From NCBI GenBank assembly GCA_964584495.1, contig CAZPAH010000003.1, positions 7,148 through 71,147 on the forward strand: DNA of 64,000 nt, given 5' to 3'. This stretch comes from an uncultured bacterium (lineage in GTDB: Bacteria > Krumholzibacteriota > Krumholzibacteriia > Krumholzibacteriales > Krumholzibacteriaceae). Position 1 is the stretch's first letter. Every line of letters starts with the position of its first letter. Under the pieces are notes generated by a model. It was not told the DNA's origin. It made no database searches and worked only from the letters and a program-made list of their open reading frames with translations. Below are positions 7,822 to 32,199 of the stretch, in pieces. Both the position numbers and the translations under genes were made by a program.

Positions 7822-8970
7822 ATGGGCAAACCAGCCGCACGAGCCACGGACACGGCCAATACATGTAACGACCCGACCGATATGCCGGTCGGCAAGGTCA
7901 TTGCGGTGGGCACTGTTTTTATAAACAAGCTGCCCGCCGCGAAGCAGGGGGACCAGGTCGTCGGGGTCGATACCCATATCATAATGATCCCGACGCCGGG
8001 CGGACCGGTTCCCACGCCCCTTCCCCACCCGTTCGCCGGGATGCTCGACAACGGTCTCTCATCCTCCGTCAAGATAATGGGCATGCCGGCGGCCACCGTG
8101 GACAGCATGGCGTCGAATATGCCCCCTCACATCCCTCAGGGAGGACCGTTCCAGAAGCCGCCCACCAACAAGGCGAAGATAATAATGGGGAGCGCCAATG
8201 TATTCATAGGCAACGGAGGCGGAGGCGGTGGGAGCGGAAAGGGCGGCGGGAAGAAGAAGGCGAAGGCCACCGCCCAGGCGGCCGACAGCGTCGAGTCGCA
8301 TACACTGAACGTCAAATTCGAGGACAAGGGGGGAAAGCCGGTCACCGGCGCGAAATATCTCGTCAAGGGGCCCGACGGCAAGGAGAGCGAGGGGTTCCTC
8401 GCCGGGCAGGTCGAGAGGCAGGGGGTCGCCGAGGGCTCTCACGAGATCAAGCTCAGCGCCGTCACGAAGGCATCCTGGTCGACCGATAGGGCGGAGGTCG
8501 GCGACAAGGTGAAGCTCCAGGTGGAAACGACCGGAGTCGAATCGGGCGAGAAGGCGGTGCTGAGGATATTCATCAAGGATTCCAATTTCGCCGATTACCT
8601 CTTCGAGACGATCGAGACCGAGGTCGGTTCCGACAAGATCGAGGAGGAATGGGAGCTCAAGGTCGACGAGAAGCTGACCGAGGCGCAGGATAAGAAGGAA
8701 GACAAGAATTACTCGAGTCCCAGCTACTACTTCGTCGTCGAGGTTGCGGGATTGAAGCAGCGCTCCGGTTCGCTGATATTCAAGGACTGGCTGGAGCTGG
8801 AGCTGGCCGACGACGAAGGCAAGCCGATCGCCAAGGCCGCATACAAGGTGTACCTGCCCGACGGATCGATAAGGAGCGGCAACCTGGACGACAACGGTTA
8901 CGCGAAGATCGAAAAGGTGCCGCCCGGAAACGTCAAGGTCGAGTACGACATCCGTTCGAGCGAAAAATAA
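7822..8970 (+). CDS. PAAR-repeat spike protein with Gly-rich linker and C-terminal tandem ~50-aa modules
   Basis: Three PAAR-type motifs fall in the first ~130 aa: PAARATD, LPAAKQGD and MPAATVDSM, with conserved GD/H spacing. A poly-Gly/Lys linker (GNGGGGGGSGKGGGKKKAKA) follows, then two copies of a module (xYxVxxPDGxxxxGxL...G...xVEY). The gene opens the co-directional T6SS block. Confidence 0.75.
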   Translation: MGKPAARATDTANTCNDPTDMPVGKVIAVGTVFINKLPAAKQGDQVVGVDTHIIMIPTPGGPVPTPLPHPFAGMLDNGLSSSVKIMGMPAATVDSMASNMPPHIPQGGPFQKPPTNKAKIIMGSANVFIGNGGGGGGSGKGGGKKKAKATAQAADSVESHTLNVKFEDKGGKPVTGAKYLVKGPDGKESEGFLAGQVERQGVAEGSHEIKLSAVTKASWSTDRAEVGDKVKLQVETTGVESGEKAVLRIFIKDSNFADYLFETIETEVGSDKIEEEWELKVDEKLTEAQDKKEDKNYSSPSYYFVVEVAGLKQRSGSLIFKDWLELELADDEGKPIAKAAYKVYLPDGSIRSGNLDDNGYAKIEKVPPGNVKVEYDIRSSEK

Positions 8971-8989: not shown

Positions 8990-11900
8990 ATGAGTAAAAA
9001 CAAGGTATCGACCAACAGAAAGACCCGTTTTTCCTGGAGCAGGAGCAAGGTCGATATCATCAAGCTCGATCATTACTTCTTCAACAAGAACAGCGCCCTC
9101 TTCCTGCCGGTGAAGCTTCCCGATTCGGATAAGGCGGACAAGAGCGCCGCCGCGGCCATGGATATTCTCGGCATCAAGTCTCTCGCCGTCGCGTTCACGC
9201 ATTGCGAGGCGGACGGCCGCCTCCGGGTCGTTATCGCCGGTCACGCCGACTCCACAGACGACGGCGGCGTCGCCGACCGGTTCGCGCTCTCCGGGCTGAG
9301 GGCGAAATCGGTATACTACCTTCTCTCGGGGGACAGGAAGAACTGGGCGAAGACGGTTTACGAGAAGCACACGATCGAGGACTACCAGCTCGTTCTCAGG
9401 TATTTTCACCTCAACAAGGGGGTCTACTTCGGCAAGATCAAGGACCAGGTCAAGCCGTTGGACCCCGGCGAGGTGAATAACAGCTGGAATGACGCCACCG
9501 ACAAGGCGACCCGCGAATTGATCGTGGGGTTCAACAACTACGCGAAGGCGAGGAAGGTCGACTCCCTCAAGCTTTCCGTGATGATGAAAACGATCAAGGA
9601 TGATGACGCCAAGCGCTGGCCGGTTGAGCTATGGGAGGCGGTCTTCATCCTCTATGAAAACGCGATCGCCCGCACCCTGAACTTATTGAAGAAGAGCGAG
9701 CTCGAGAGCAAGCGGAAGGATATCCTGAAATTCTGCGACGACAAGAAACCGTTCGTCTCGTGCGGCGAATCTTTTCCCCTGAAGGATCTCGACGATCAGA
9801 AGAAATCGAACTACGATCCGAAGCCGGGCCGGGGCGCCGAGATAATCTTCTTCAACAAGAAATCCCTGCCGGGAAAGAAGATCTCCAAGAAGATGCGGAT
9901 CGTCTGCCCGGCCGACACAGGCAGCGTCCACCCGGCCAAGAAGTGCCCGATATTCTACAAGCACCATATGAAGTCGACGTACATCGATCACCGCAATCTC
10001 GACCTTGTGATCTATCATCTCAAGTTCGTCTACTACGACCGGGTGAAGAACGAGATCGCGCCGGTGCCGGCGGGGCTCGCTATCGAAGCGGGCCGCTGGG
10101 ACGACACCGCCAACGCGAAGGTCGCGATCGACTCGGCCACGGATTTCAACGACGGCGTCTACAGCGTCAAGGTGCCCGACGACGCGACGCGAAAGGATAT
10201 CGCCTTCTGGTTCAAGGCGGTAGATACGGTCGATCCCACGAAGAGGTGGTGGGTCTACACGGACAGCGCCGACGCCGATCCCAAGCTGGTTCTCAAGACG
10301 GATGCCGAGGTCAAGGCACTCGCCGCCGCCGAGAAAATCAAGTACTACGATCTTCCGCGTGAGTGGTCATCCATCAATTACTGGACCCGCTTCGAGAAAT
10401 ACACCGTGGGGGACGAATACAAGAAGATGATGAAAAAAAAGGGATTCAAGCCTTTCGGATCGAAGCAGCAGACCGCCGGGAAGCCCTTGATCTTCTCCCT
10501 GGACGATATCGTCCTGACCGACACCGCCGGACTCCAGAACGTGAGGGACAAGGACGGCACCGGGGCGGCGGTCGCTCTTTCGAAACATTCGAGGGTCACC
10601 CTCCTCTACCCCGACGCGGGCGATGATTTCAATATCAAGATACACAAGCCGATCGCCAAGGAGCCGTATTTCAGCGACGTAAAGGGCGGTTTCGAGGCTA
10701 ACCTTATTCATGACTACTGGGACGACAAGGATGAGAACCTTCACAGGCCGTGCCGGGTTGTAGTCTTCTGCAGCGAGTTCTACGACATATACAACAGGCG
10801 GACCGAATCGTATCCCACCTTCAGGTTCAACAAGGGGAATATTCTCGGCGCCAGGGCGGCCCGCAGGGACGACTCCCACTGCAGCGGGAAGAAATCGATC
10901 AACGGCTGGGATGCCGGCGACAAGGCGAGCGCCTACGCGGCGAAAGACGCGGGGAATTACAGGCTCCACTATCTCCATGACTGGGGCATCCATGACAACA
11001 AGCTGCACAGCGGGCTCATTATATACTGGAGCTGCCGTTATACGGTCGACGCGGGACAGGGCGGCAAAAAGATCGACAAGAAGAACTATATCGAGAAGGG
11101 GATGAAGAACGCGATGGACCGTATCGGCCTGAAGAAGTACCAGCTGGAGAAGCTGACCGGGACCGAGGATATAGTGATAAAGACATTTCCGCTCCTCGAG
11201 GCGAAGCAGGACTACAAGGTGGGATCGAACGAGATAAAGAGGGGCGGGGAGCATATATGCCTGGTAAGCCTGACCGACGACACCCATACGAGCGGGATGG
11301 GATACGATATGGCCAACTTCCGCTCGAGCGCCTACCAGGACGAGCCTGCAAGGGCCAGCGCCAACCCAGCGTTCAACAACACGCAGGATTACGATGGTCA
11401 TACCTACAACTCCCTCACAGGGGCCCACGAGATGGGCCACGCCCTCGGGCTCGACGACGAGTACATCCGCACCGCTTCCTCCGGGGTCGGGCTCGCCCAG
11501 TACGACCAGTACTATCCGGGGGTTCCCTACTCGGGCGACATGCTGACCCTGATGAACAAGAACCGCGGGACGAGGATGCATCATTTCTGGCTCTACGCGA
11601 ACTGGATCAACGACGCATCCGAGAACGGCCAGGTCCTGCACGATTTACTAAAGGGGACGAAGTTCAAGCTGGTCCTGAAGGGCGGGCCCGGCGACCTGTC
11701 GTTCGAGCTGACCCACGACGATTACCGCAATGTCTACAAGCCGGTCTACGAGGACGATGTAGATTACGGGGGCGGGACCCACGGCTACCTCATAGTGTAC
11801 AAGCTGGGGGACGGCGAGTTCGCCAATACACTTAAAGCGAACCAAAAATTCACCGGCATAATGGTCGTAAGGACAAACATCTGTGTCAAGTTCACCAACG

Positions 11901-12313
11901 ATACGTCGAACTGGACGGCTCAGGAAGCCTACGACTGGGTCCAGGCCCTCGACTCCGACCTGAAGCTGATGCTGGGAAACAAGTACTGGCTGAAGCGGGA
12001 CGATCCCGATCATCCTTTCAAGAAGGTTTATCTGTATTTCCTGCCACACTACTCGGTGGCGGACCCGGCCCCGGCCGGCACCCATTACAAGCTCGAGGTG
12101 AAGAGGAACGATAACAACGGGTTCAATCCCGACGGTGCCGATAAGTCGAAGATCGTAGTGGATGACGACGTGGAGAACAAGAAGATCATAAGGCACTTCT
12201 TCGGCAAGTTCGCCGGTCATGCGAATCTGACCAAGCCCGAGCTTGCGAAGATCAAGGATTGGATCGGTCACGCCGCCAGGGCGAACGTGGCATTTACGAT
12301 TGAGGACCTGTGA
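8990..12313 (+). CDS. Large putative T6SS effector with N-terminal OmpA-like domain and C-terminal zincin metallopeptidase motif
   Basis: Near the N-terminus, VVIAGHADSTDDGGVADRFALSGLRAKSVYYLL matches the OmpA_C-like core (GHTDxxG...LSxxRA). In the C-terminal third, TGAHEMGHALGLDDEY gives HExxHxxGxxD, the zincin pattern with Asp as third ligand seen in the snapalysin/metzincin-like group. It lies immediately downstream of the PAAR gene with a 19-bp gap. Confidence 0.6.
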   Translation: MSKNKVSTNRKTRFSWSRSKVDIIKLDHYFFNKNSALFLPVKLPDSDKADKSAAAAMDILGIKSLAVAFTHCEADGRLRVVIAGHADSTDDGGVADRFALSGLRAKSVYYLLSGDRKNWAKTVYEKHTIEDYQLVLRYFHLNKGVYFGKIKDQVKPLDPGEVNNSWNDATDKATRELIVGFNNYAKARKVDSLKLSVMMKTIKDDDAKRWPVELWEAVFILYENAIARTLNLLKKSELESKRKDILKFCDDKKPFVSCGESFPLKDLDDQKKSNYDPKPGRGAEIIFFNKKSLPGKKISKKMRIVCPADTGSVHPAKKCPIFYKHHMKSTYIDHRNLDLVIYHLKFVYYDRVKNEIAPVPAGLAIEAGRWDDTANAKVAIDSATDFNDGVYSVKVPDDATRKDIAFWFKAVDTVDPTKRWWVYTDSADADPKLVLKTDAEVKALAAAEKIKYYDLPREWSSINYWTRFEKYTVGDEYKKMMKKKGFKPFGSKQQTAGKPLIFSLDDIVLTDTAGLQNVRDKDGTGAAVALSKHSRVTLLYPDAGDDFNIKIHKPIAKEPYFSDVKGGFEANLIHDYWDDKDENLHRPCRVVVFCSEFYDIYNRRTESYPTFRFNKGNILGARAARRDDSHCSGKKSINGWDAGDKASAYAAKDAGNYRLHYLHDWGIHDNKLHSGLIIYWSCRYTVDAGQGGKKIDKKNYIEKGMKNAMDRIGLKKYQLEKLTGTEDIVIKTFPLLEAKQDYKVGSNEIKRGGEHICLVSLTDDTHTSGMGYDMANFRSSAYQDEPARASANPAFNNTQDYDGHTYNSLTGAHEMGHALGLDDEYIRTASSGVGLAQYDQYYPGVPYSGDMLTLMNKNRGTRMHHFWLYANWINDASENGQVLHDLLKGTKFKLVLKGGPGDLSFELTHDDYRNVYKPVYEDDVDYGGGTHGYLIVYKLGDGEFANTLKANQKFTGIMVVRTNICVKFTNDTSNWTAQEAYDWVQALDSDLKLMLGNKYWLKRDDPDHPFKKVYLYFLPHYSVADPAPAGTHYKLEVKRNDNNGFNPDGADKSKIVVDDDVENKKIIRHFFGKFAGHANLTKPELAKIKDWIGHAARANVAFTIEDL

Positions 12314-13518
12314 TGAGGGTGTCACCAAACAGGCCGCTGCTGCTGTGCATGATGCTGTTATCTTTGACCGCCGCCTGCCGCTCGCGGGCGGGGAACGAGC
12401 CGGGCGCTGCTCTTATCGCAGGTGAAGGAGAAATAGAAATGAATGAAGGCTACTCGACTGATTTCGCCGATTTCCGGCGGTCCTCTTTCCAGAACACTAC
12501 GGTCGATTGCGGGGGGGAGATCCTCTGGGCCTCGGACTACCGGGCCGGGGGGGCGCCGCCGCGGGCGCTCTACCTTTTCGGCGGAAAGCCGCTGGTTGTC
12601 TCGGGCGTCGGTTTCGACCTTTATTCCGGTGATGGGACCTTTCTCTGGCACCAGGACATGAACGAAGGGTCGCCGATCGGATTGACCGACAGGTTGATAT
12701 ATTTCCATGACGACAGGTTCCGTCTTTCCGCGGTGAACGCGGCCAACGAGCGCGCTATGGAGAACGGCTATTTCCCGGGCCCGATCAATCTCGACTATCC
12801 CCTTTCGCTTCTTTGGGCCGGCAAGCTCGACTACCTCTACGTCGTGCAGTTCACCGGGGGCGCCGAGGAGCTGCCGCCCAAGGTGATGGTGAAAAGGACC
12901 GTGTACGGCAAGCGGCTTGCCAAATGGACCTACGAGGTCGAGGGAAGACAGCTCCTGCCGCCCCTCTACCTGCCCGAGGTCGAGCAGGTCGTCGTTTTCG
13001 CGGATATGATCCATTTCGTCGACGCGGTCGACGGAAACGAGATATCGAAGAGAAAGTACCCGCTGGAGGGGGCCGTAAGCGCGAGCGCCGATCGCACAGG
13101 GACGGTCTATCTCTGCGGCAGATCGAAGGAGATCCTATCGCTGGCCGCTTTCGCCGCAAATGGAGATCCGCTCTGGATATGGGAGGATGAAGAGGGATTC
13201 GGCATGCCGTCGGTGCAGCCTCCCGCCATCGGAGAGGATAGCAGCATCTATATCCTCGCCGGGAACGATATAGTCGCGGTCAGGGACGGAGGAAAATCAT
13301 GGTCGTTCCGCGTCGAGGACGACCGGCCCTCCTGCTGCACCGCCTTCGCCGGCGGCAGGCTTCTGGCCGCCGCGGGCAGCCGGCTTATCGGGATCGACCT
13401 TGAAGGGAAAGAATTGTTCGACATCGAATTTGATGATACGATATTCGCGCCGCCGGTGGGCGCCGGCGACGGGACAGTCTTTCTTCTGACCGCCGGAAAG
13501 CTCTTGAGAGTGCGCTGA
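12310..13518 (+). CDS. Lipoprotein, beta-propeller (PQQ/BamB-like repeats); putative cognate immunity protein
   Basis: Its start overlaps the effector stop (ATGA at 12310-12313), indicating translational coupling. The signal peptide with lipobox LSLTAAC predicts periplasmic lipoprotein localisation. Repeated W/G-rich blade-like segments are present. Confidence 0.5.
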   Translation: MMRVSPNRPLLLCMMLLSLTAACRSRAGNEPGAALIAGEGEIEMNEGYSTDFADFRRSSFQNTTVDCGGEILWASDYRAGGAPPRALYLFGGKPLVVSGVGFDLYSGDGTFLWHQDMNEGSPIGLTDRLIYFHDDRFRLSAVNAANERAMENGYFPGPINLDYPLSLLWAGKLDYLYVVQFTGGAEELPPKVMVKRTVYGKRLAKWTYEVEGRQLLPPLYLPEVEQVVVFADMIHFVDAVDGNEISKRKYPLEGAVSASADRTGTVYLCGRSKEILSLAAFAANGDPLWIWEDEEGFGMPSVQPPAIGEDSSIYILAGNDIVAVRDGGKSWSFRVEDDRPSCCTAFAGGRLLAAAGSRLIGIDLEGKELFDIEFDDTIFAPPVGAGDGTVFLLTAGKLLRVR

Positions 13519-13561: not shown

Positions 13562-14008
13562 ATGAAAAAAGACGAGACGATGTTCGATATCAAGCTGCCC
13601 CAGGGCTGGGAGGATCAGACGGTGTATTTTTTCCGGGGGCCGTCGATAGACGACAGGGAGCACAAGGTCATGATGACGATCGACCGCCTCCCCCAGCAGG
13701 ACGAGATCTCGAGGTTCGCCGCCGTCAGGACGAGACCGATCGTCGAAAACCTCCAGGGAGTTGAAGTTCTCAAGGACGAGGAGACGACCCCGGCCGGGTG
13801 CTATCCCTCCTACGAGTTCGTCTACAGGTGGATCCCGGCCGACGGCATGAAGATCGTCAAGAAGCATATCTATGTTCTTCACGGCAGGTTCGGATACTGC
13901 TTCGAGGCGGAGTTCACGAAGAAATCGTACAAGATGCTGGGAGGGCAGCTTAAAAAGCTGGTGGAGAGCCTTCTGCCCGGGACATACGAGCCGGTGGACG
14001 ACCGTTAG
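13562..14008 (+). CDS. DUF1795 / Eag-like T6SS effector adaptor (chaperone) candidate
   Basis: The protein is 148 aa. Its N-terminal MFDIKLPQGWEDQTVYFFRGP matches the hallmark L-P-x-G-W-x-D-x-S/T-x-x-F of the DUF1795/DcrB-like EagR/EagT family. The size is typical for that family. Confidence 0.45.
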   Translation: MKKDETMFDIKLPQGWEDQTVYFFRGPSIDDREHKVMMTIDRLPQQDEISRFAAVRTRPIVENLQGVEVLKDEETTPAGCYPSYEFVYRWIPADGMKIVKKHIYVLHGRFGYCFEAEFTKKSYKMLGGQLKKLVESLLPGTYEPVDDR

Positions 14009-14030: not shown

Positions 14031-14939
14031 ATGCCAGAATCGAAATTCAACAAGCAGACCGATTCAGAGGAGAAGGTCAAGCTCGACTCGGCGCTGATCT
14101 ACGCCGCGTGGAAGGACGGAGCGGCTTATACCGGCGCCCCGGCGGGGTTCGTCGTAGGAACGGTCTTCGTCGGCAACGGAGCCAAGATAGAGATAGCGGG
14201 AAAGAGCGAAGGGGGAAAATCGCTCGGGAAGATCAAGGATACGATAGACAGCAACCGTTATGCGGGCGAGTTCGAGATACCGGACGATACCGACCCGGGG
14301 GACGAGATCTATTTCACCGTGAAGATTTCGAAGAACGGGATAGACGAGGAGTCGAACCGCATACCGGTCTTCCAGGGGCCGTTGATCACCAACATGCAGT
14401 GGAGCGAGCAGGAGGCGAGGCGGGGGGACGTTCTCAAGCTGACCGCCGACGTGGAGAAGGTGGCCAACGGTACGGAGGTTCTCGTCACGATATACGAGTA
14501 CGACGAGGACGGGGCGCACGACAAGATCGCCGAGATACCGGCCGAGATAAAAGATTTCAAGCTCGAGGTGGAATGGGAGTACGAGTACCACGAGGACACA
14601 GACGAGATACCCACGACGGCGGAGATGGGAAGGTACGGGGGCTCCTACAATCCCCCCGAGTATTTCTTCACCGTGAAGTGCGGCGGGTTCGAGGCGGGGA
14701 AGGAACGGGAATCGGGGCTTTTGACCTTCAAGGACTATATAGATATCGTTCTTCGCGACGCGGCGGGCAATCCGGCCGCCGACGCGAGGTATATCGTTCA
14801 TCTTCCCGACGGATCGCAGAGGGAAGGGCAGCTCGACGCCGGCGGGCGAGCGCGGGAGGAAGGGATCGCGCCGGGGCATATCGAGGTCGAGTTTCCCGAT
14901 CTGCGACAGGTCGACCCGCTCAGCGGGGAGGAGGAGTAG
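14031..14939 (+). CDS. Hypothetical protein sharing a C-terminal ~80-aa module with the PAAR protein
   Basis: I chose the in-frame ATG at 14031 (MPESKFNK) inside ORF 13872..14939, because the upstream part overlaps the adaptor gene. The C-terminus EYFFTVKCGGFEAG...LLTFKDYIDIVLRDAAGNPAADARYIVHLPDGSQREGQLDAGG...HIEVEF aligns position-by-position with the PAAR C-terminus SYYFVVEVAGLKQRSGSLIFKDWLELELADDEGKPIAKAAYKVYLPDGSIRSGNLDDNG...VKVEY. Confidence 0.45.
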   Translation: MPESKFNKQTDSEEKVKLDSALIYAAWKDGAAYTGAPAGFVVGTVFVGNGAKIEIAGKSEGGKSLGKIKDTIDSNRYAGEFEIPDDTDPGDEIYFTVKISKNGIDEESNRIPVFQGPLITNMQWSEQEARRGDVLKLTADVEKVANGTEVLVTIYEYDEDGAHDKIAEIPAEIKDFKLEVEWEYEYHEDTDEIPTTAEMGRYGGSYNPPEYFFTVKCGGFEAGKERESGLLTFKDYIDIVLRDAAGNPAADARYIVHLPDGSQREGQLDAGGRAREEGIAPGHIEVEFPDLRQVDPLSGEEE

Positions 14940-14942
14940 ATC

Positions 14943-16595
14943 TTGCCGGGATTCGAGTACACTATAAGAAGAAGGGACACCCTCACGGCGATCGCCCGCC
15001 GCTACCGGGTGGAGGGCGGATGGCGGGCCATATGGAACGACGAGCATAACGAGGACCTGAGAAACCGCAGGCACAGCCCGAGAAGGCTCTTCGCCGGCGA
15101 CAGGGTCTACATTCCGGGGGCGAGCGGCAACAGGGGAGCGGCGCCCAGCGGGGGGACGGCGGTATTCACCGTTCCGCCCCCGTACCAGATACGCGCCGAA
15201 GACGGATTTTACCCTCCCCCCACCGAGATACCGAGGGGGGGGACGGTCAGGCTGCGCGCCGTTCATGACGATGGAGAGGAAGGCGACTGGGCCTGGGCCA
15301 CCACGAGCACGAAGATCACCCTCTCCGATGAGATGACGGACACCGTCACGGTAACGGCCGGCAACAACGCAAGCGCCGGGGAATCGGCGGAAGTCGTGCA
15401 GGTGATGTTCACCCCGGCCGCAGAAGAATCGTTGCCGCCGGTCGAAGCCGGGATTACCGTGGTAGGAGTCGCTTTCAGGCCTTCGGCGAGCCAGGGCTAC
15501 GGCTTCGACGGGATGGGCGCCAATGCGGGCGACCGGACGCCCCGCAGAAGCACGCCCCACATATCGGTGAAGAAGAATACCAGGACGAGGGTGAGGGTGG
15601 TTGTAACGGGCGGGGTCGATTCCGGGGTCCTTCACTTCACAACCGACGACAATACGACCGCCGAACCCGTGGTCGAGGGAGCGCCTTCGGCCTCCTTCAC
15701 CCTTTTCATAGACGGCAAAGAGAAGAACAAGGCCAATACTCTGATCCACGCACGGCTGGACAGCGATACGGGCCCGATTTGCGCCAGCCTGGCGGTGAAC
15801 GTCTACAGGGAGATGTCATATACGGCCAAGGTGGCCAAGGTGTGGGACAGCACCTCCGCCTCGACGGCCCTCTCTCGTCCGAACTTCAGCGTTAACACGA
15901 CCCAGACGGCCCTCAGGGGATATTACAAGCAGGCGGTGACGACGATCAGCCTTACCGATTACAGCAGCACCGGCGGTGTCGTCGACGTCCATTTCGATCC
16001 GGGGGGGGCGGGCGCGCTCGTTCTTGAAGCGGGGCGCACCTCGGCCGGCCAGCAGGCGGTCCAGGCCGCCCTGACCGGGACCGGCAAGAAGATCGTGATC
16101 GTGAAAAAGCTTTCCTGGCTCTTCAAGCTGGGCTCCGCCGCCGCGATCGGTGATAACAGGATAACGATGGCCTCGTTCATCAACGAGACGCTCATGGGGT
16201 ACATTACGGCCGGAACGTACCAATTCGGCGGGCCGGGCAATTACGAGAATATTACGGTCACCGCGACGAACCGGACCACGAAAGTGGTGACCCTTTCGGG
16301 CACCTTGACCAAGGCGCATCCGGCGACCGAAGGGATATGGTGGCCCCTCGGCGGATTGAGCGGCAATCCCGCATATGTCCAGGAAGGGACCGATACCGAG
16401 GCGAAGGTAAACGAGGTGATCGGCCACGAGTTCGGCCATGAGCTGATGAGGCTGCTCGATCTGGATCACCGGCAGAGCCTTATGTATTTCTCCAACTCGA
16501 GAACGGGCCAGGAGATAAGGTTCAAATCATTGCAGAGGCACTATCCGGACCCGGGGGGTAACGAGAGCCAGTGGGAGCTTATCAGCCGGACCTAG
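14943..16595 (+). CDS. LysM-domain protein with C-terminal HExxH zinc-peptidase-like motif (second putative effector or wall-acting protein)
   Basis: The N-terminus YTIRRRDTLTAIARRYRVEGGW...GDRVYIPG reads as a LysM fold. Near the C-terminus EVIGHEFGHELMRLLDLDH gives HExxH plus downstream D/H. The co-directional, coding-dense context favours this frame over the 561-aa antisense ORF. Confidence 0.55.
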   Translation: MPGFEYTIRRRDTLTAIARRYRVEGGWRAIWNDEHNEDLRNRRHSPRRLFAGDRVYIPGASGNRGAAPSGGTAVFTVPPPYQIRAEDGFYPPPTEIPRGGTVRLRAVHDDGEEGDWAWATTSTKITLSDEMTDTVTVTAGNNASAGESAEVVQVMFTPAAEESLPPVEAGITVVGVAFRPSASQGYGFDGMGANAGDRTPRRSTPHISVKKNTRTRVRVVVTGGVDSGVLHFTTDDNTTAEPVVEGAPSASFTLFIDGKEKNKANTLIHARLDSDTGPICASLAVNVYREMSYTAKVAKVWDSTSASTALSRPNFSVNTTQTALRGYYKQAVTTISLTDYSSTGGVVDVHFDPGGAGALVLEAGRTSAGQQAVQAALTGTGKKIVIVKKLSWLFKLGSAAAIGDNRITMASFINETLMGYITAGTYQFGGPGNYENITVTATNRTTKVVTLSGTLTKAHPATEGIWWPLGGLSGNPAYVQEGTDTEAKVNEVIGHEFGHELMRLLDLDHRQSLMYFSNSRTGQEIRFKSLQRHYPDPGGNESQWELISRT

Positions 16596-17617
16596 GCGCG
16601 CGTGGGCGTAAGGGCCGCGCGGGCACTAAAATAAATATCGCGGTTATAATATTGCTGACGGCCGTTTTTTCGGCGGTCGCCGCCGGCAGCTGCGGATGCC
16701 GGTCGGGGAAGGAGACTGACGAGTTGACGAAAATACAGGAACTGATCGAGAGTTTCAGATCGGGCGTCGAGTTCGACGGAGATGTCGAGCCCTATGTCAC
16801 GGGCGGCAAGCCGGATATGGAGGCGGTAGGCCGGTTCCGGACGGCGCTCGAAAGGGAGGATGAGCCGGTCCGGGAGCAGGTATGCCGTCTGCTCGGAGCG
16901 CTAGGCAAGAGGGTCGATCCCCTCTACGAGAAAGGGGGCGGAATGATCCGCGACAGGACGATTGTCGGCATCCTAGTGAACGACGGCCTGTCGAGGAAGG
17001 GCCCGGCGAGGGATATCTGCCTCGATCTTCTCCAGTATGCCGTGCCGGGGCATGTGCTGAAGGATTTCGGCAGGCAGATGGCCGACAATCTCAAGATGTA
17101 CCCAGACGCGACGCTGCTCCTGGTGATAGCCAAGGCGAAGGCCCCAGAGGCGAAGGATGCTGTCGATTCGCTTATGAAGATCCCAGGCTGGGCCGGGGAG
17201 ACGGAGACGAGGATCGCCGCGGCGGCCCTCGGGGACCGGGAGATAGAGCGATCGTTCATAGAACGTTTTCGCGCCGCTCAGGAACCGGCGGAAAAGGCCG
17301 AACTTGCGAAGCTGCTTGGCCTTATCGGGACGGAATCGGCCCTCAGGGAAGTGGCCGCCGCGATGCGGTCCGACATGATCATAGAGATGTCCGGGGTCTC
17401 CTCGCGATCGATCAGGATATATTTCATCGAGGCCCTCTCGTACAATTTTCCAGAGGAAACCTTTCTGTACGATAACGCGGTCAACAGCGACGAGGATTAC
17501 GCGAAGGTGGAAAAATTCTGCGAGGAGAGGTTCGGCGTGAAATGGAAAAAAGAGCGCCCCCCGTTCCTATGGATACAGGGGTATCCGACCGAGCCGCAAC
17601 CCGATATTACCCCTTGA
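16571..17617 (+). CDS. HEAT/ARM-like repeat lipoprotein (possible immunity or accessory protein)
   Basis: A basic n-region is followed by the hydrophobic INIAVIILLTAVFSAVAAGSCGC with a lipobox Cys. The remainder is predicted alpha-helical with repeats. It overlaps the upstream stop by 25 nt. Confidence 0.45.
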   Translation: MGAYQPDLGARGRKGRAGTKINIAVIILLTAVFSAVAAGSCGCRSGKETDELTKIQELIESFRSGVEFDGDVEPYVTGGKPDMEAVGRFRTALEREDEPVREQVCRLLGALGKRVDPLYEKGGGMIRDRTIVGILVNDGLSRKGPARDICLDLLQYAVPGHVLKDFGRQMADNLKMYPDATLLLVIAKAKAPEAKDAVDSLMKIPGWAGETETRIAAAALGDREIERSFIERFRAAQEPAEKAELAKLLGLIGTESALREVAAAMRSDMIIEMSGVSSRSIRIYFIEALSYNFPEETFLYDNAVNSDEDYAKVEKFCEERFGVKWKKERPPFLWIQGYPTEPQPDITP

Positions 17618-17730: not shown

Positions 17731-20250
17731 ATGGATATTACCAGCTATTCGCATGATTCCAGAACGGTTATCAAGAACGCCCAGGAGATAGCCTCTTCCT
17801 ACAGGCATGCCGAGATCGACGTGGAGCACCTGCTGATGGCGATCGTCCGCCACGAAGGGACCGAGGTGGAATCGATCCTTCACCAGATGGGTAAATCCCC
17901 GTCGTTCGTCGAGTCGATGGTCGATATCTACCTGAAGGATCAGCCCGCTAAGTCGACGGGAAGGGAGAAGGTGCCGATCTCACCGGCGGTCCAGACGGTG
18001 CTGAACAACGCCCTCGACGAGAAGGCGAAGCTCTACGATCCGCTGGTGGAGCCGGAGCATATCTTCATATCGATATTCGATCCCCGCTCGGCCCTCTCGG
18101 GCTACGTGAGGGACAAGGTAGAGATAACGAGGGAAGATATATACCGCGCCATAGCGGAGATGAAGGCGGTCGAGGAGATAGCCTCCACTCCCGGCGAGAA
18201 GGGCGAAAAGGCGGCGGCCGCGGGGGAATCACCGGAGAAGATCGCGAGGACGCTCAGGTACACCAACGACATGACCGATCAGGCGGCCGGCGGAAAATTC
18301 GATCCTATGATCGGACGCGAGGACGAGCTGCAGCAGACGATCCAGATTCTGCTTAGGCGGCGCAAGAACTCGCCAGTGCTTGTCGGCGGCGCAGGAGTCG
18401 GAAAATCGGCCATAGTGGAAGGGTTCGCCCAGGCCGTCATCGACAAGAGGGTGCCGAAGGTGCTCCAGGATGTCAAGGTGCTGGAAGTCGATATGGGCGC
18501 GATCATAGCCGGCGCCAAGTACAAGGGGGAGTTCGAGGAACGCTTCAAGGCGCTGATCGGCGATGTCGTCAAGGGGGCCGGCAAGGTCATCCTCTTTATC
18601 GACGAGATTCACACGATATGCGGAGCCGGTTCCGGCGGCGGGATGGACGCTGCGAACCTTCTCAAGCCGGCCCTCGCCCGCGGGCAGCTCAGACTGATAG
18701 GAGCCACTACGGAGGAAGAGTACACGAAGTACCTGGAAAAGGACAAGGCGCTCGTGCGCCGTTTTGAGAAGGTTAAGATCGAGCAGCCGGTTTTCGAGGA
18801 GGCCGTCACGATCGTCAGGGGCGTGGCGGACAGGTACGAGACGCATCACAAGGTCAAGTTCGACGAGGAGGCCAAGATCACCTCGGTGAAGCTGGCGCAG
18901 AGGTACCTCTCCGAGAGGAACCTTCCCGATATAGCCCTCGATATAATCGACGAGGCCGCGTCGGAATTTTCCGTCAAGCAGGAGCTTGCCGGCGAGAAGA
19001 TAAAGTCGCTCACCAAGCATTTCGAGGATATCGATAAATTGATCGGCGGAAAGGGCGAGGGGCTCGGCGAGACGTACGACGCTCTCACGAAGGACCTCGA
19101 CACGCTCCAGAAGTACTGGGGGCACAGGCTCGACAGGGAATACGAGCAGAGCCTCTCCTTCGACAAGATAAAGAAGGAGAATCTACCCGATATCATGGCG
19201 AAGAAGAAGGAGCTGTTCGAAGATTTGAAGGGTGTCGTGGAGAAGCTGGAGCCGGTCATATTCGACAGCGACATCGGCGCCGTGATCGCCCGGAGAACGG
19301 GGATCCCCGTGTCGAAGATGATGACGGCCGAGAAGGACCGGCTGATCAACATGGAGGAGTTCCTGGGCCGCAAGATCATCGGCCAGGAAAACGCGATCAA
19401 GGCGGTATGCAACGCCGTCAGGAAGTCGAGGGCCGGGCTTAAGCTGCCGTACCGCCCCGTGGGCTCGTTTCTGTTTCTCGGGCCGACGGGAACCGGCAAG
19501 ACCTATCTTCCGAAGCTCTTGGCCGACTTCCTCTTCGACGATAAGAACGCGATCGTCCGGATGGATATGTCGGAATTCATGGAGACTCATTCGGTCGCCA
19601 AGATGATCGGTGCGCCGCCGGGGTATGTCGGGTACGAGGCGGGGGGGCTTCTGACCGAGGCTGTTCGCAAGAAGCCTTTTTCGATAGTGCTGCTGGACGA
19701 GGTGGAGAAGGCGCATCCGGACGTATTCAATATTCTGCTTCAGCTCCTCGACGACGGCCGCTTGACCGACGGACAGGGACGCACCGTCGATTTCTCCAAC
19801 ACGATAGTGGTATTGACTTCGAACTATGCCGCTGATAAGATTCTCGAAGCAGATCGCGAGGGCAGGGAACCGGACATGGAAGAGATACGCTCGTTCCTGT
19901 TCGGGAAATTCAGGCCGGAGCTCCTGAACCGTCTCAACGAGATCATAGTTTTTCATCCATTTTCGCAGGAGCAGGTCGAGAAGATCGCCGCGCTCGAGTT
20001 CAAGAATCTCTGCGCCCTTCTGGAGGATCTCAACATCGAGGCGTCCCTCTCCGACGAGGCGACCAAGAAGCTCGCCAGGGAGGGGTACACGGTGGAGCTG
20101 GGTGCAAGGCCGATCCAGAGGATAATCGAGAAGCAGATTATCAACAAGCTGTCGGTGGAGATCATCACGGGCGAGGTAAAGCCGGGCGACGAGGTGAAGA
20201 TCGACATCAAGGACGATGATTACGTGTTTACCGTGGTAGAAAATAAATAG
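17731..20250 (+). CDS. clpV: T6SS AAA+ ATPase ClpV (TssH)
   Basis: Clp N-domain, then two AAA modules: Walker [10 protein letters not shown] in D1 and GPTGTGKT in D2, a sensor/arginine-finger region, and the ClpB-like [13 protein letters not shown] motif. Its position directly upstream of tssB, tssC and hcp supports the call. AAGGAG Shine-Dalgarno is present. Confidence 0.85.
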
Positions 20251-20277
20251 GATGAAGCGTTTAAAAAGGAGGAATTG

Positions 20278-20718
20278 ATGGCAAAGTTCATACTGGGAGC
20301 CACGGAACGGGTCAAGAAAGACGACTCGATTCCGGTCGAGCTTCTTCCATCGAACAAGTTGTTGTACGTGGCCAAGCTCAACAACGATGAGGACAGCGAA
20401 CCGGACCCGGTGCGTTGCAACAATCTGAAGGAGGTTTTCGATAAATTCCGTCCTTCATTCGAATGCGAGCTGGAATCGGCCGAAGGAGAGCCTATCAACG
20501 CGGATTTCCATATAAAGGCGATGAAGGACTTCACGCCGAAGGAGCTTATCGAGAACAACGATTACCTTTCGACGACCTACTACAGCAAGGAGATCCTTGC
20601 CGATCTCGACAAGCAGCTCAAGAAGAATAACGCACTAAAGAAGACTTTGAAGGACAAGGACAAGAAGGAAGCTCTTCTTAAGGCGGCGCAGTATTACATA
20701 GAACTTCTAACCGAATAG
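20278..20718 (+). CDS. tssB: T6SS contractile sheath small subunit TssB
   Basis: A ~147-aa acidic/lysine-rich protein lying between clpV and the large sheath gene, preceded by an AAGGAGG Shine-Dalgarno. Size and position match TssB. Sequence-level identity with known TssB was not verified by eye. Confidence 0.55.
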   Translation: MAKFILGATERVKKDDSIPVELLPSNKLLYVAKLNNDEDSEPDPVRCNNLKEVFDKFRPSFECELESAEGEPINADFHIKAMKDFTPKELIENNDYLSTTYYSKEILADLDKQLKKNNALKKTLKDKDKKEALLKAAQYYIELLTE

Positions 20719-20736
20719 AAGAGTGAGGTGATATAA

Positions 20737-22164
20737 ATGGGCGACGAAGAAAAGGAATTGCAGCCTCAGGCGCAGGAAGCGGCGAAGGAAAAGCAGGCCG
20801 CGGCGCCGGGCGAAAAGATCTCCGACGACGAGTTCGCCGAGATCTTGAGCGAATCGTTCGGGAAGTTCGACGATCTGGCCAAATTGCTTCCTTCATTCAA
20901 GACTGCCGACGGCGACCTCGTCCGGGGCGTCGAGTGGCTCGATCCCAAGAAAGACTTCCAGAGAAAGGAATTTCTCTCCAAGCCGAATTTCGCCAAGCAG
21001 AGAAAGCTTCTCGCGGAGAGGCTGAAGATATGGCGTGAGGCGCTGACCGGGGCGGACGATCCCGACCAGATCCGCAAGGGCCTGAACGAGAAGATGACCA
21101 AGCTCGAGGCTAATCTCGACAAGAACATGAAGCGCGTTCTGCGGGCGAGCCGCGATATGGAAACGGCCTACAGGGCGATAGACAAGTTCTTCGCCAACGC
21201 GCAGCTGGAGCCGGACGAGAAGGTCAACGCCTGGTTCGCCAACGTCAGCCCCGACCAGCTGATGGATCCCGACGACAAGGAAAAATTCGAGCAGCTCGCC
21301 AAGGCGGTCTCCGATCTTTATCGCGAATGGTCGATCAAGGACTGTTTCTCGATGGCCGTCGTGCCCGGCTGGGTGGGATCGGTGGAGAATATCGACACCC
21401 TCGCGCGCCAGCTCGGCCTGCCGAACAAGCTGCATATCATGACCGACCTGCCGAACTTCGAGAAGTTCGACGAGGTCATGGATATGCTGGAGGACCCCGC
21501 ATACGCGGGGCTGGCGGGGATCGACGACTTCAAGCAGTATATGTCGGTGTTCGCCAATTACGTACAGGCGAGGGAAGCCAACCAGTACGAGGACGAAGAC
21601 ATGTGGATTCCGCCCTCGGCGGTGGTGGCGGGAAAGCTGTACCAGGGGGACTCGACCACCGGCATGCAGCAGCCGTCGGCCGGCTTCAAGTACGGCAAGA
21701 TCGCCGAATCGAAGTACATCAAGTTCAGGGCCAACCAGCCCGATGCGAGCAAGATCAACGAAAAAGGCGTCAACACCATGGTCAACTTCGAGGGTTCCGT
21801 GGTGGCGATGGGGTCTTCCACGCTATCGACCAAGGAGACATTCAATATTTACTCCATCCGCAGGACCTACGATTACGTCTACAAGACGCTGCGCAACTAC
21901 CTCAACAAGCAGACCTTCTCTGTGATCGACCAGAAGTTCATTGACGCCCTCAGGCGGGATATAGACAAGTTCATGAAGGCTATATCTGGGGGCGACAATA
22001 TTCTGGAGGATTACAAGATAGAGATTTTCGCGGACGAGGAGATGCGCAAGAGACAGGAGGTTGATATCAAGGTCGCCCTTAATCCGAAATATCCCGCGCG
22101 GACGTTCAACATAGAGTTCGCCGCATGGAATGAGGATAACCAGATCAACGTGAAAGACAAGTAA
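20737..22164 (+). CDS. tssC: T6SS contractile sheath large subunit TssC
   Basis: A 475-aa protein immediately after tssB and before hcp, with the size and position typical of TssC (VipB). The call rests mainly on synteny. Confidence 0.55.
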   Translation: MGDEEKELQPQAQEAAKEKQAAAPGEKISDDEFAEILSESFGKFDDLAKLLPSFKTADGDLVRGVEWLDPKKDFQRKEFLSKPNFAKQRKLLAERLKIWREALTGADDPDQIRKGLNEKMTKLEANLDKNMKRVLRASRDMETAYRAIDKFFANAQLEPDEKVNAWFANVSPDQLMDPDDKEKFEQLAKAVSDLYREWSIKDCFSMAVVPGWVGSVENIDTLARQLGLPNKLHIMTDLPNFEKFDEVMDMLEDPAYAGLAGIDDFKQYMSVFANYVQAREANQYEDEDMWIPPSAVVAGKLYQGDSTTGMQQPSAGFKYGKIAESKYIKFRANQPDASKINEKGVNTMVNFEGSVVAMGSSTLSTKETFNIYSIRRTYDYVYKTLRNYLNKQTFSVIDQKFIDALRRDIDKFMKAISGGDNILEDYKIEIFADEEMRKRQEVDIKVALNPKYPARTFNIEFAAWNEDNQINVKDK

Positions 22165-22208
22165 GTACAAACCGCCTGTTCGCAGGCGCAGGAAAGGAGA
22201 ACGGGAAG

Positions 22209-22613
22209 ATGGCAAGAAGACCAATCCTTGAGATCGATGGTGTCGCGTACAAGAACGTGTATGAAGTTTCGTACAGGCTCTACACCGCCAAGGATGAGAC
22301 GGGCCGCCCCTCGGACCGCGCCCACGCCGGTGTAATCAAGATTAAGAGGGAATCGGACGAGACCTGCGATATAGCCAGGTGGGCGATGGATTCCTCCAAG
22401 CCGAACTGGAAAAACGGCAAGGTGATGTTCAAGAATCCCGATGACGCGACGATGAAGGAGCTTGCCTGGGAGAACGGGTTCATCACGGCGTACGCCGAGA
22501 GCGTTCCCCATATCAAGAACAATCCCGACGAGCAGATGTGGGAAGAGTTCGAGATCTCCTGCCAGAAGCTTACGATAAGCGACGCCGAGATCGACAACCT
22601 CTGGGAAGAGTAA
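22209..22613 (+). CDS. hcp: T6SS tube protein Hcp (TssD), short Bacteroidetes/T6SS-iii-like form
   Basis: 134 aa. The sequence GRPSDRAHAGVIKIKRESDE...GKVMFKN...AYAESV shows the beta-sandwich pattern of short Hcp/TssD. It is preceded by a strong Shine-Dalgarno (AGGAGAA) and followed by a small hairpin before vgrG. Confidence 0.6.
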   Translation: MARRPILEIDGVAYKNVYEVSYRLYTAKDETGRPSDRAHAGVIKIKRESDETCDIARWAMDSSKPNWKNGKVMFKNPDDATMKELAWENGFITAYAESVPHIKNNPDEQMWEEFEISCQKLTISDAEIDNLWEE

Positions 22614-22732
22614 ATCCTGGGCTTGGCAACCGTACCCGGTTGCGGGCCGCGTGAAAATAAACCGATGTCTCGTCAGGCCGCGATCCGGCAAGACCGGGTC
22701 CGGCCCGGCGGACGTCCGGTCGGGAGTGAAAA

Positions 22733-24520
22733 ATGGCCGTACTGGAAACTCCGGCCGAATGCCTGATTCGGGTCGATAACCAGGAAATCAAGTTCAATAT
22801 ATCGGGCATCCAGCTGGATCAGTTCATCGACACCCACCATCACCTTGTCCTCCGCATCCAGCAGGTAGGGAAGAAGGATGCGGGCAAGGATTTCGACGAT
22901 CCCGGCAAATACTCGGGATTTCTCGGGCAGAGCATCGCCCTTACGATCAATCCGACCGGGGGGGTGGTGGACCCTTCCCGCGCTCTGGAATTCATAGGCG
23001 TGATTACCGATGTGCAGCTCGAGAACAGCATCGATGGACTGAACACCGTGTTGATCCACGCCGCTTCGTCGACGATCAGCATGGATGGAGCGGCGAAGAA
23101 CGCCCACTATTACGACAAGAGCGCCAGCGATATCATAGGCGCGATCGTGGGCAACTACCCGATAACGGTTGGAAAGATCGAGTCTACGAAGGACAAGTTC
23201 AAGTTCGACACGCAGTACCGAGAAAGCGACTTCGATTACATCATGCGCCTCGCCCGGGGGGCCGGAATGTTCGCCTACTACACGGGGCGCGATTTCAACC
23301 TGACCCCCGCCAACAGCAGCAACACCGTCGACCTCGTGTGGCGCGAGAATCTAGGGGCGTTCAGGATGGGACTCGGCACGGCGCCTGTCGAGTTCAAGTC
23401 GGAAGTATACAATTACGAGCAGAAGAAGACCTATTCGCAGGACAGCCAGTCGATATCCCAGCAGGCGTCTCTCTCGGAGCAATCGAAGGTCTCGCCCCAG
23501 GCATCGAAGAAGATATTCAAGGAGTCGAGCTTCTCGTCCTCCCCCAAGACGGTCGAGGACGCCAAGGCGCTCGACAAGACGCTCGAAAACGAACGCCGCA
23601 GGGCGATGGGCTCCATGATCCGCTGCCGGGGGCAGTCGATAGTCCCGGCCGTGACGATCGGCTCCTGCATAAAAATCGAGGGGATGGACAAGCTCGACGG
23701 GCAGTACTGGGTCAAGAGCGTCCGCCATATATTCGATGACAGCGGGAAGTACCATAACACGTTCGTCTGCACGCCCCTCGACATAGCGTATCCCGGAAAG
23801 AGGGAGACGGGCAAGGACCTCGAGACGGGCGAGGAATCCATCAAGGCGACCGCCAGCATAGAGAACGTGGAGGAGGCGAAGAGGAAACCGGTTCTGGGGC
23901 TTCACGTGGCGAGGGTGGTCGATCTGAACGATCCGGAGAGCCTCGGGCGGATCAAGATCAGCTACCCGTGGCTCGATTCCCAGCAGACCGCCTGGGTGCG
24001 GCTAATGGTCCCCCACGCCGGCAAAGACCGCGGCTGGTACGCCCTCCCCGAGCTCGATGACGAGGTGCTGATCGGCTACGAGCACGGCAATACGGATCAC
24101 CCGGTCGTCCTGGGGTGCCTGTACAACAAGGAAAATTCCCCGATGCAGGAGGCCGTGTCGAGCGATAACGACATCAAGATGTTCATGACCCGCAGCGGCA
24201 ACAAGATCGTTTTCAACGACAAGGACGGCTCGGAGCAGATCCTGATATCCCAGAAGGAAGGCAAGAACCAGATCGTCCTTGATATATCGGGACCGTCGAT
24301 ATCGATCACGACGGAGGGCGATATCTCGATCAAGGGAAATAACCTCGCTGTCGAGGCGCAGGAGGGGATCACGATGAAGGCGTCCTCCGACGTGAAGATC
24401 GAAGGGGCCAATATAGAGATAAAGGCCCAGGGAAACATCACCTCGGAAGCGGCCGCCAACAACGATATCAAGGGCAACGCCCAGGTCAACGTAAAGGGCG
24501 GTATGGTAAACCTTAATTAA
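22733..24520 (+). CDS. vgrG: T6SS spike VgrG (TssI), gp27/gp5-like with C-terminal beta-helix
   Basis: A gp27-like N-terminal region, then the gp5/baseplate-V-like OB region (WVRLMVPHAGKDRGWYALPELDDEVLIGYEHGNTDHPVVLG). The C-terminus has repetitive ISIKGNNLAVEAQEGITMKASSDVKIEGANIEIKAQGNI beta-helix repeats. Confidence 0.8.
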   Translation: MAVLETPAECLIRVDNQEIKFNISGIQLDQFIDTHHHLVLRIQQVGKKDAGKDFDDPGKYSGFLGQSIALTINPTGGVVDPSRALEFIGVITDVQLENSIDGLNTVLIHAASSTISMDGAAKNAHYYDKSASDIIGAIVGNYPITVGKIESTKDKFKFDTQYRESDFDYIMRLARGAGMFAYYTGRDFNLTPANSSNTVDLVWRENLGAFRMGLGTAPVEFKSEVYNYEQKKTYSQDSQSISQQASLSEQSKVSPQASKKIFKESSFSSSPKTVEDAKALDKTLENERRRAMGSMIRCRGQSIVPAVTIGSCIKIEGMDKLDGQYWVKSVRHIFDDSGKYHNTFVCTPLDIAYPGKRETGKDLETGEESIKATASIENVEEAKRKPVLGLHVARVVDLNDPESLGRIKISYPWLDSQQTAWVRLMVPHAGKDRGWYALPELDDEVLIGYEHGNTDHPVVLGCLYNKENSPMQEAVSSDNDIKMFMTRSGNKIVFNDKDGSEQILISQKEGKNQIVLDISGPSISITTEGDISIKGNNLAVEAQEGITMKASSDVKIEGANIEIKAQGNITSEAAANNDIKGNAQVNVKGGMVNLN

Positions 24521-29942: not shown

Positions 29943-29959
29943 ACCGGCGGGAATAGACT

Positions 29960-32170: not shown

Positions 32171-32199
32171 CGGTTTAATAGTCGACGAAAGGAAATACG

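Follow-up and report, generated by a model that had tools for sequence, protein, structure and literature searches.

Periplasm-acting metallopeptidases of type VI secretion systems (T6SS) are known from the VgrG2b C-terminal domain with PA0261 and from Tpe1 with Tpi1, where immunity is provided by periplasmic proteins or lipoproteins (PMC6899460). The known clients of Eag chaperones carry prePAAR motifs and N-terminal transmembrane (TM) helices (PMC12881460). In Listeria, a phage-derived metzincin is encoded beside a TIMP-like lipoprotein proposed as its inhibitor, and cell-wall integrity is affected (PMC8235301). Here, a two-gene cassette is described from a 64,000-nucleotide stretch of DNA (hereafter the window) from an uncultured bacterium of the Krumholzibacteriaceae (GenBank assembly GCA_964584495.1, contig CAZPAH010000003.1, positions 7,148 to 71,147, forward strand). 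The cassette encodes a 550-amino-acid (aa) protein with a predicted metzincin-like zinc peptidase domain and a 348-aa HEAT-like predicted lipoprotein. Judged from sequences and structure models, there is a rough probability of 75% that the 550-aa protein serves the adjacent T6SS as an antibacterial cargo effector and that the neighbouring lipoprotein is its immunity protein. An effector/immunity pair had been suggested in a preliminary description of this DNA, and it is favoured because a HEAT homologue is strictly paired with the metzincin gene (adjacent at 13 genomic places), because N-terminal modules are exchanged among homologues, and because the genomic slot holding the pair turns over. 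The pair has the following features.

14943-16595, + strand: gene for the 550-aa metzincin-like putative effector (open reading frame, TTG start)
14943-15122, + strand: LysM domain, residues 1-60 (PF01476 and AlphaFold2 topology)
15180-15812, + strand: two bacterial Ig-like beta-sandwich domains, residues about 80-290
15813-16592, + strand: metzincin-like zinc peptidase domain, residues about 291-550
16110-16346, + strand: beta-barrel insert in the catalytic domain, residues about 390-468, boundaries approximate
16425-16484, + strand: predicted zinc site and Met-turn, H495-E496-x-x-H499...D506...M514 (conservation)
16571-17617, + strand: gene for the 348-aa HEAT-like lipoprotein, predicted immunity gene (open reading frame, GTG start)

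Architecture of the 550-aa protein

Both open reading frames (14943-16595 and 16571-17617) were present as described earlier, and a ribosome-binding-like run, GGAGGAGGAG, lies just 5' of the TTG start at 14943. Homologues of the 550-aa protein aligned across the full length at 54-67% identity, the closest coming from metagenome-assembled genomes (MAGs) labelled Krumholzibacteria. The architecture comprises an N-terminal LysM, two Ig-like domains and a C-terminal HEFGH domain into which a beta-barrel is inserted. No signal peptide and no TM or hydrophobic segment were found in a Kyte-Doolittle scan.

The LysM family PF01476 scored 19.1 bits in a scan of the full-length protein, under the gathering score of 20.9, and 26.9 bits (E 4.8e-6), above that score, when residues 1-60 were scanned alone. 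The AlphaFold2 (AF2) model of this region has the order beta-alpha-alpha-beta (strand 3-7, helices 14-20 and 26-31 with 34-42, strand 54-58; pLDDT 72-84), and precomputed PF01476 matches were available for two homologues. The N-terminal LysM of the preliminary description was borne out by the score over residues 1-60 together with the LysM topology of the model. For the beta-barrel insert, a likeness to small phage-tail domains was seen; these phage-like matches were confined to the inserted decoration domain and covered neither a tube nor a gp53 fold.

Predicted metzincin fold and active site

An initial AF2 model built from 18 close homologues was confident for the LysM and for the small beta domain (residues about 390-468), and gave pLDDT below 50 at residues 291-391 and 469-550; the alignment was too shallow for these values to count as evidence against a fold. 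Distant relatives were obtained by an exhaustive HMMER search over 1.84 billion representatives, which returned 956 family matches at E <= 1e-3, of which 112 reached E <= 1e-30. With 115 family sequences, AF2 modelled residues 285-550 at pLDDT 97.4 and pTM 0.92. In this model, residues about 291-550 adopt a zincin/metzincin catalytic fold, and a feature whose absence had been named as a reason to abandon the earlier reading is predicted to be there. The figures given for the modelled domain against known metzincins were 11.2 (ADAM8), 10.8 (ADAM17), 10.8 (archaemetzincin), 10.1 (ulilysin) and 9.7 (fragilysin and CpaA).

A profile search of the PDB with the family returned weak matches (best E 0.011), with an alignment spanning the HExxH, the Asp and the Met. 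At E <= 10, the best 60 of the 71 chains matched were all adamalysins or matrix metalloproteinases, which are eukaryotic metzincins. VgrG2b was not recognised among these best 60, a negative obtained without a direct comparison and with the presence of a VgrG2b C-terminal structure in the searched chains unconfirmed. No Pfam or NCBIfam model covers the catalytic domain.

The motif-bearing segment HEFGHELMRLLDLDH comprises residues 495-509 of the 550 and is followed by 41 residues. The HExxH noted earlier is real and conserved across the family, and only the statement that the region ends in this motif had to be corrected. H495, E496, H499, D506, M514, Q543 and W544 were invariant in 50 divergent sequences chosen by length. 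Within the 115-sequence set, which had been selected for carrying HExxH, position 506 was Asp in 113 sequences and His in two, and position 514 was Met in 113. His, the sole substitute seen at D506, is the other third ligand of metzincins. Across the family, the consensus reads HExGHx[L]L x L x D. In the profile alignment, the Met eight residues past D506 falls on the Met-turn of adamalysins, a correspondence in sequence that makes it a putative Met-turn residue.

An independent check of the motif used 124 representatives picked via the C-terminal M...R...QW signature and not via HExxH. Because 119 of these 124 matched the strict pattern HExxH-x(5-9)-[DH]-x(6-20)-M, the HExxH is, judged from its conservation, not a chance occurrence. 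Among the remaining five representatives, four had HExxH at another spacing and one had HExxxH, so that HExxH was present in 123 of 124 overall. Among these five is P0143, whose motif, HEVMHNLGFGH, is the canonical one of metzincins.

The HEAT-like lipoprotein and its pairing with the metzincin gene

At the N-terminus of the 348-aa protein, a single hydrophobic segment precedes a conserved G-C-x-S-G-K-E compatible with a lipobox, and the homologue in locus L010 has a textbook LTGC. The signal peptide and the conserved GC lipobox uphold its earlier description as a lipoprotein. As a predicted exported lipoprotein, it would sit in the compartment where the toxin would act. Its assignment to HEAT repeats was upheld in part: a four-homologue profile matched alphaRep/HEAT-repeat chains in the PDB at E 1.2e-5, and the window copy itself, at 22.9 bits, stayed under the Pfam HEAT_2 cut-off of 27.7. 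No relationship between the HEAT lipoprotein and PA0261 was detected, without a direct comparison to PA0261.

The overlap of 25 nucleotides (nt) between the two genes is present given the GTG start at 16571, the sole canonical in-frame start upstream of the signal-peptide core. It is not a conserved feature, because in homologous pairs the second gene begins 4-137 nt past the end of the first or overlaps it by 4 nt.

A HEAT homologue adjoined the metzincin gene in all 17 locus identifiers (L001-L014, L095, L096/97), corresponding to 13 distinct genomic places. By the depositors' own labels, the MAGs that hold paired loci span at least six nominal lineages: Krumholzibacteria, Zixibacteria, Ignavibacteriales, Planctomycetales, Terriglobia and Pseudomonadota. 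The metzincin gene was syntenic beside the T6SS core in nine retrieved loci. Gene order within the pair varied. In L009, the HEAT gene lay upstream of the metzincin gene and no T6SS gene was found within 10 kb. The order in L010 was VgrG, PAAR, a metzincin with a CarboxypepD_reg N-terminus and the HEAT lipoprotein, and in L011 PAAR was followed by a PG_binding_1 protein, an Amidase_2 protein of 1019 aa, two small genes, the metzincin and the HEAT gene. A Tae4-metzincin fusion (P0026) was likewise followed by a HEAT homologue (41% identity, E 2e-62).

Exchange of N-terminal modules

The module formed by residues about 80-550 was found behind LysM, OmpA, PG_binding_1, Tae4, transglutaminase and CarboxypepD_reg N-termini or behind a short leader. 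Even close homologues swap or lose the LysM (P0018, L008). In many members (476-500 aa) nothing but a short N-terminus precedes the module, and a HEAT gene still accompanies them, as in L009, L011 and L013. Tae4 is a known T6SS amidase toxin domain. Two wall-binding folds in one island had been called unusual; such fusions recur across the family and are better described as a family habit. Sec signal peptides are present in some distant family members, which may be secreted proteases of the ordinary kind.

Beside metzincin-module genes of two distant loci (L011, 1250-1948; L096, 7365-7982), PG_binding_1 proteins of only 205-232 aa are encoded on their own. The N-terminal stretch of the L011 copy is LysM-like by eye; Pfam reported no LysM in it. 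In some cases, wall binding may come from a separate protein instead of a fused domain.

Turnover of the cargo slot

Genes on the + strand of the window from about 7.8 to 32.7 kb were surveyed with an open reading frame list and a Pfam scan. The metzincin-HEAT pair lies between a putative loading apparatus and the T6SS core.

7822-8970, + strand: PAAR spike-tip protein with a C-terminal beta-sandwich extension, likely delivery vehicle (Pfam PAAR_motif, E 3.4e-10)
13562-14008, + strand: 148-aa Eag-type (DUF1795/DcrB) chaperone (Pfam DcrB, EagT6 profile match, synteny)
14031-14939, + strand: protein of about 300 aa ("p300"), putative loading adaptor (kept upstream of every cargo variant)
17731-24520, + strand: T6SS core of ClpV, TssB, TssC, Hcp and VgrG (Pfam VipA, PF17541, PF17642, Phage_GPD, Phage_base_V)

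Metagenome contigs were scanned with ClpV, and loci of the same type with a ClpV 63-83% identical to that of the window were mapped. Most ClpV matches were at about 40% identity; they appear to be housekeeping ClpB relatives and were excluded from locus mapping. The related loci keep the Eag-like gene and p300 and differ in the stretch from p300 to ClpV.

L017, 1381-3231: 391-aa protein and a 218-aa lipoprotein unrelated to the HEAT protein
L028, 7374-9770: 798-aa protein with a TM-like segment
L053, 7365-9761: 798-aa protein with a TM-like segment
L070, 525-2663: 712-aa protein
L059, 134-1144: 336-aa protein with HEIAH
L092: ClpV immediately preceded by the HEAT gene, as in the window (contig ends inside the HEAT gene)

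None of the alternative slot proteins matched a Pfam family, and because of this they are candidate new effectors. In the two loci closest by ClpV identity (L015 and L018), a divergently oriented PAAR gene abuts ClpV and the Eag-p300-metzincin-HEAT cassette is absent from that place; in L015, an X1107 homologue comes next after this PAAR gene. Judged from these gene arrangements, the slot behaves as exchangeable cargo with its immunity gene and not as a baseplate part. The preliminary description had offered a gpX-like baseplate protein as an alternative. This loses ground with a cassette that is missing or replaced at 63-83% ClpV identity and with the pair that stands without T6SS genes in L009. 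Conservation of the 550-aa protein as a structural component in all homologous T6SS loci, which would have told against the effector reading, was looked for and not found.

Eag chaperone, p300 and proposed loading

Pfam DcrB matched 11 of 11 homologues of the Eag-type protein (best E 1.3e-12), and the window copy scored 25.1 bits against a cut-off of 27.2. Its profile matched EagT6 (6xrf and 1tu1) at about E 6e-5, with 5.8e-5 for 6xrf. The C-terminal two-thirds of p300 resembles the C-terminal extension of the PAAR protein: residues about 119-290 of p300 were 30-38% identical to residues about 214-375 of PAAR382 (tblastn). A PAAR-Tlde1 effector of L002 (5065-6753) has a linker to which p300 was about 35% identical (tblastn). 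These three regions may represent a shared spike-docking or adaptor domain. A further homology, between p300 and the CarboxypepD_reg N-termini of P0018 and P0021 as a "Rosetta stone" link, was dropped for want of significant similarity.

The putative effector has no export signal, and a protein of 550 aa does not fit into the Hcp lumen, which makes spike-associated delivery likely. Since the Eag-like chaperone and p300 are both kept in front of the slot, they would load whatever cargo occupies it. According to a hydrophobicity scan, TM segments are lacking from the effector and p300 as well as from the PAAR protein and the 1107-aa protein encoded upstream, and the PAAR protein begins with an ordinary PAAR motif and not a prePAAR.

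A broader proposal is put forward only tentatively, with the odds judged to be clearly against it. Upstream of a swappable slot, the Eag chaperone and the p300 adaptor would form a fixed "dock", a loading route as yet undescribed for T6SS, by which large effectors lacking TM segments and PAAR or Rhs domains reach the spike of a Bacteroidota-like machine of the T6SS-iii type, in Krumholzibacteria as well as in neighbouring phyla. Together with its dedicated HEAT inhibitor, the metzincin family would then be a widespread, uncharacterised class of envelope-targeting proteases, the substrate of which could be a new T6SS target.

Proposed mechanism and alternative readings

As a T6SS effector without an export signal, the 550-aa protein would stay in the cytoplasm of the producer and be loaded on the VgrG/PAAR spike, probably with help from the Eag-like chaperone and p300. 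Sheath contraction would deliver it into the periplasm of a neighbour. There the LysM, with its predicted glycan binding, would dock it on the sacculus, and the metzincin domain would damage the envelope by cleaving peptide bonds, either of the wall itself or of envelope proteins associated with it. Zinc is predicted to be held by H495, H499 and D506, with E496 as the catalytic base and M514 in the Met-turn. In sister cells, the HEAT lipoprotein in the periplasm would most likely bind and block the protease, by analogy with T6SS immunity proteins.

Several observations weigh against this reading or parts of it. The canonical HExxHxxGxxH/D spacing is not present: counted from the second His, the Asp is at +7, and position +3 is not a Gly. 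To our knowledge, classical peptidoglycan peptidases are not metzincins, which makes a wall substrate uncertain. Eag chaperones are known to bind TM domains of effectors and the 550-aa protein has none, which leaves its loading route to guesswork. In addition, all loci that were found via the metzincin and labelled Krumholzibacteria, Zixibacteria or Ignavibacteria had kept the pair, with 36-67% identity; finding loci through the metzincin carries an ascertainment bias that the ClpV search corrects in part, as it returned few long contigs.

The description of the pair as peptidoglycan-directed derives solely from the fused LysM, OmpA, PG_binding_1 and Tae4 domains, and it is a target suggested by domain content. 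An envelope or wall target is supported because the module is recurrently fused to three unrelated wall-binding folds and to Tae4. The best-placed alternative differs from the favoured reading in substrate only. It holds that the T6SS effector acts on proteins (envelope lipoproteins, division proteins, or eukaryotic or extracellular proteins) and that the LysM serves for retention or loading only. Such a protein substrate is possible, if the less probable choice. Metzincins are typically protein endopeptidases, as textbooks have it, and distant members with Sec signals are possibly ordinary secreted proteases. The VgrG2b C-terminal metallopeptidase showed no peptidoglycan hydrolase activity and is nevertheless a periplasmic toxin (PMC6899460). 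The repeated fusion to wall-binding folds and to the Tae4 amidase speaks for the wall instead, as does L011, where the module stands among wall-targeting genes (Amidase_2, PG_binding_1); a purely eukaryotic target is argued against by the predicted periplasmic location of the immunity protein. On balance, the peptidoglycan wall is placed slightly ahead of protein as the substrate.

It is unlikely that the 550-aa protein remodels the producer's own wall for T6SS assembly, in the manner of TagX or MltE, with the HEAT lipoprotein as an envelope partner or regulator. A wall-binding domain joined to a hydrolase beside core T6SS genes would suit this role, and an unusual envelope solution is conceivable, as Pfam scans recognised no TssJLM or TssNOPQR family in the window. 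However, with neither signal peptide nor anchor the protein cannot reach its own periplasm by Sec. The cassette is also dispensable or exchangeable in close relatives, the pair occurs far from T6SS cores, and the same module is fused to the T6SS toxin domain Tae4.

Less probable still is a role of the C-terminal module as a carrier or self-processing domain for variable N-terminal payloads, with the HEAT protein as a chaperone. This would account for a variable N-terminus on a constant C-terminus, the reverse of classical polymorphic toxins, and for one N-terminus (Tae4) that is itself a toxin domain. It is hard to reconcile with the many module-only members that remain HEAT-paired, with N-terminal partners that are mostly binding domains and not toxins, and with the export signal of the HEAT partner, which places it in a different compartment from the cytoplasmic effector.

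Finally, there is very little to recommend a structural LysM part of the T6SS baseplate or tube initiator (like P2 gpX, T4 gp53 or Afp7/Pvc7) with the HEAT lipoprotein in an envelope-spanning complex: the LysM at the extreme N-terminus without an export signal, as in textbook contractile-tail LysM proteins, the gene position directly upstream of ClpV-TssBC-Hcp-VgrG in the nine syntenic loci and the phage-tail likeness of the insert are set against a gene absent or replaced in loci with a 63-83% identical ClpV, a pair that also stands away from T6SS genes (L009) and in orphan vgrG/PAAR islands, close homologues that swap or lose the LysM (P0018, L008), a conserved core predicted to be a peptidase with an intact active site, and phage-like matches restricted to the decoration domain.

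Other genes of the locus

Upstream of the Eag-type gene, two further genes on the + strand lie behind the PAAR gene.

8990-12313, + strand: 1107-aa protein with HEMGH
12310-13518, + strand: beta-propeller lipoprotein

These two (8990-13518) occurred together in several related loci. The 1107-aa protein matched the metzincin module (beta-barrel insert and HExxH part) weakly in hhalign (probability 50%, E 1.6e-4), and its Pfam matches to OmpA (E 0.036) and to a reprolysin-like family (E 0.074) were also weak. Residues 330-374 of the PAAR protein gave weak prealbumin-like matches in Pfam.

The assignment of ClpV is based on the sequence of its open reading frame and on its homologues, which are recorded with Clp_N and AAA families. 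The stretch 3' of VgrG contained a gap at the position of TssE in homologous loci, followed by probable TssF, TssG and TssK and three membrane proteins; TssF is only probable, being placed by position and length with no Pfam match. From its sequence, the machine of the window looks like the T6SS-iii-like type, because TssC and Hcp match PF17541 and PF17642, models which we take to be built on Bacteroidota systems.

TssK is followed by three proteins (29013-32709): the first, of 309 aa, has a C-terminal TM segment; the second, of 736 aa, combines a single TM segment with a DO-GTPase2 match; and the third, of 169 aa, has a signal peptide. The 309-aa and 736-aa proteins accompany the T6SS core in other loci; these are candidate parts of a membrane complex not recognised so far. 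On the - strand just upstream of the PAAR gene, at 6336-7592, lies the gene for a PP2C phosphatase that has an FN3 domain and a single TM segment, and in the related locus L003 a Ser/Thr kinase adjoins the PP2C gene. The two suggest a threonine-phosphorylation switch for this T6SS. ClpV matched as two neighbouring pieces, its N- and C-terminal halves, in L002/L007, L008, L028, L053, L058, L059, L070 and L092, and it was called as two genes in L002. The two pieces could be a genuine split gene or recurrent assembly frameshifts.

Significance and comparison with known systems

Literature searches on the T6SS of Krumholzibacteria, on T6SS with LysM and metzincin, and on metzincin effectors of the T6SS found nothing relevant; the coverage was incomplete and this is weak evidence of novelty. 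If the effector/immunity reading is confirmed, a large metzincin family (956 representative clusters, about 950 at 50% identity) without a Pfam or NCBIfam model would join the T6SS toxins, and a new family of HEAT-repeat lipoprotein inhibitors would be added. The strict pairing of protease and inhibitor offers a ready-made system for studies of metzincin inhibition. The locus is also a first look at the cargo organisation of T6SS-iii-like machines outside Bacteroidota, and an Eag-like chaperone with an adaptor before an exchangeable slot could serve effector mining in uncultured phyla. To a T6SS specialist, the system would not be surprising in kind.

Compared with adamalysin/ADAM and other metzincins (atrolysin C, ADAM8/17, archaemetzincin, ulilysin and fragilysin), the catalytic domain is only 8-14% identical in sequence. 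Unlike these metzincins, it has its predicted Asp ligand at +7, where theirs is a His or Asp at +6 after a Gly, and it carries a beta-barrel insert of about 80 residues. The 550-aa protein differs from them also in being cytoplasmic, without a signal peptide and encoded within T6SS loci. It resembles P2 gpX, T4 gp53 and Afp7/Pvc7 in its N-terminal LysM, the lack of an export signal and a position beside contractile-machine genes. Unlike gpX, gp53 and Afp7, it is not conserved with the machine; it is exchangeable, has an intact peptidase and is always encoded beside an exported HEAT protein.

The locus is similar to those of Eag-dependent effectors (EagT6-Tse6, EagR-Rhs) in that an EagT6-related DUF1795 protein is encoded two genes upstream. 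It differs from the known Eag clients in having no TM segment in the effector, p300 or the PAAR protein. Like the cassette, the Listeria pair encodes a metzincin beside a lipoprotein proposed to inhibit it; that metzincin is Sec-secreted in a Gram-positive host and has a TIMP-like inhibitor, whereas the present one would be T6SS cargo with a HEAT-like partner.

The closest likeness in kind is to the Tpe-Tpi pairs (VgrG2b/PA0261 of P. aeruginosa and Tpe1/Tpi1 of A. baylyi), in which an HExxH toxin acts in the periplasm, as predicted or shown. In those pairs too, the immunity gene adjoins the toxin gene and its product is exposed to the periplasm, in some species as a lipoprotein (PMC6899460). 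In contrast to the VgrG2b fusion, the 550-aa protein is a free cargo with a LysM, two Ig-like domains and a beta-barrel insert. The kind of system is thereby known; the metzincin family and its HEAT partner appear undescribed.

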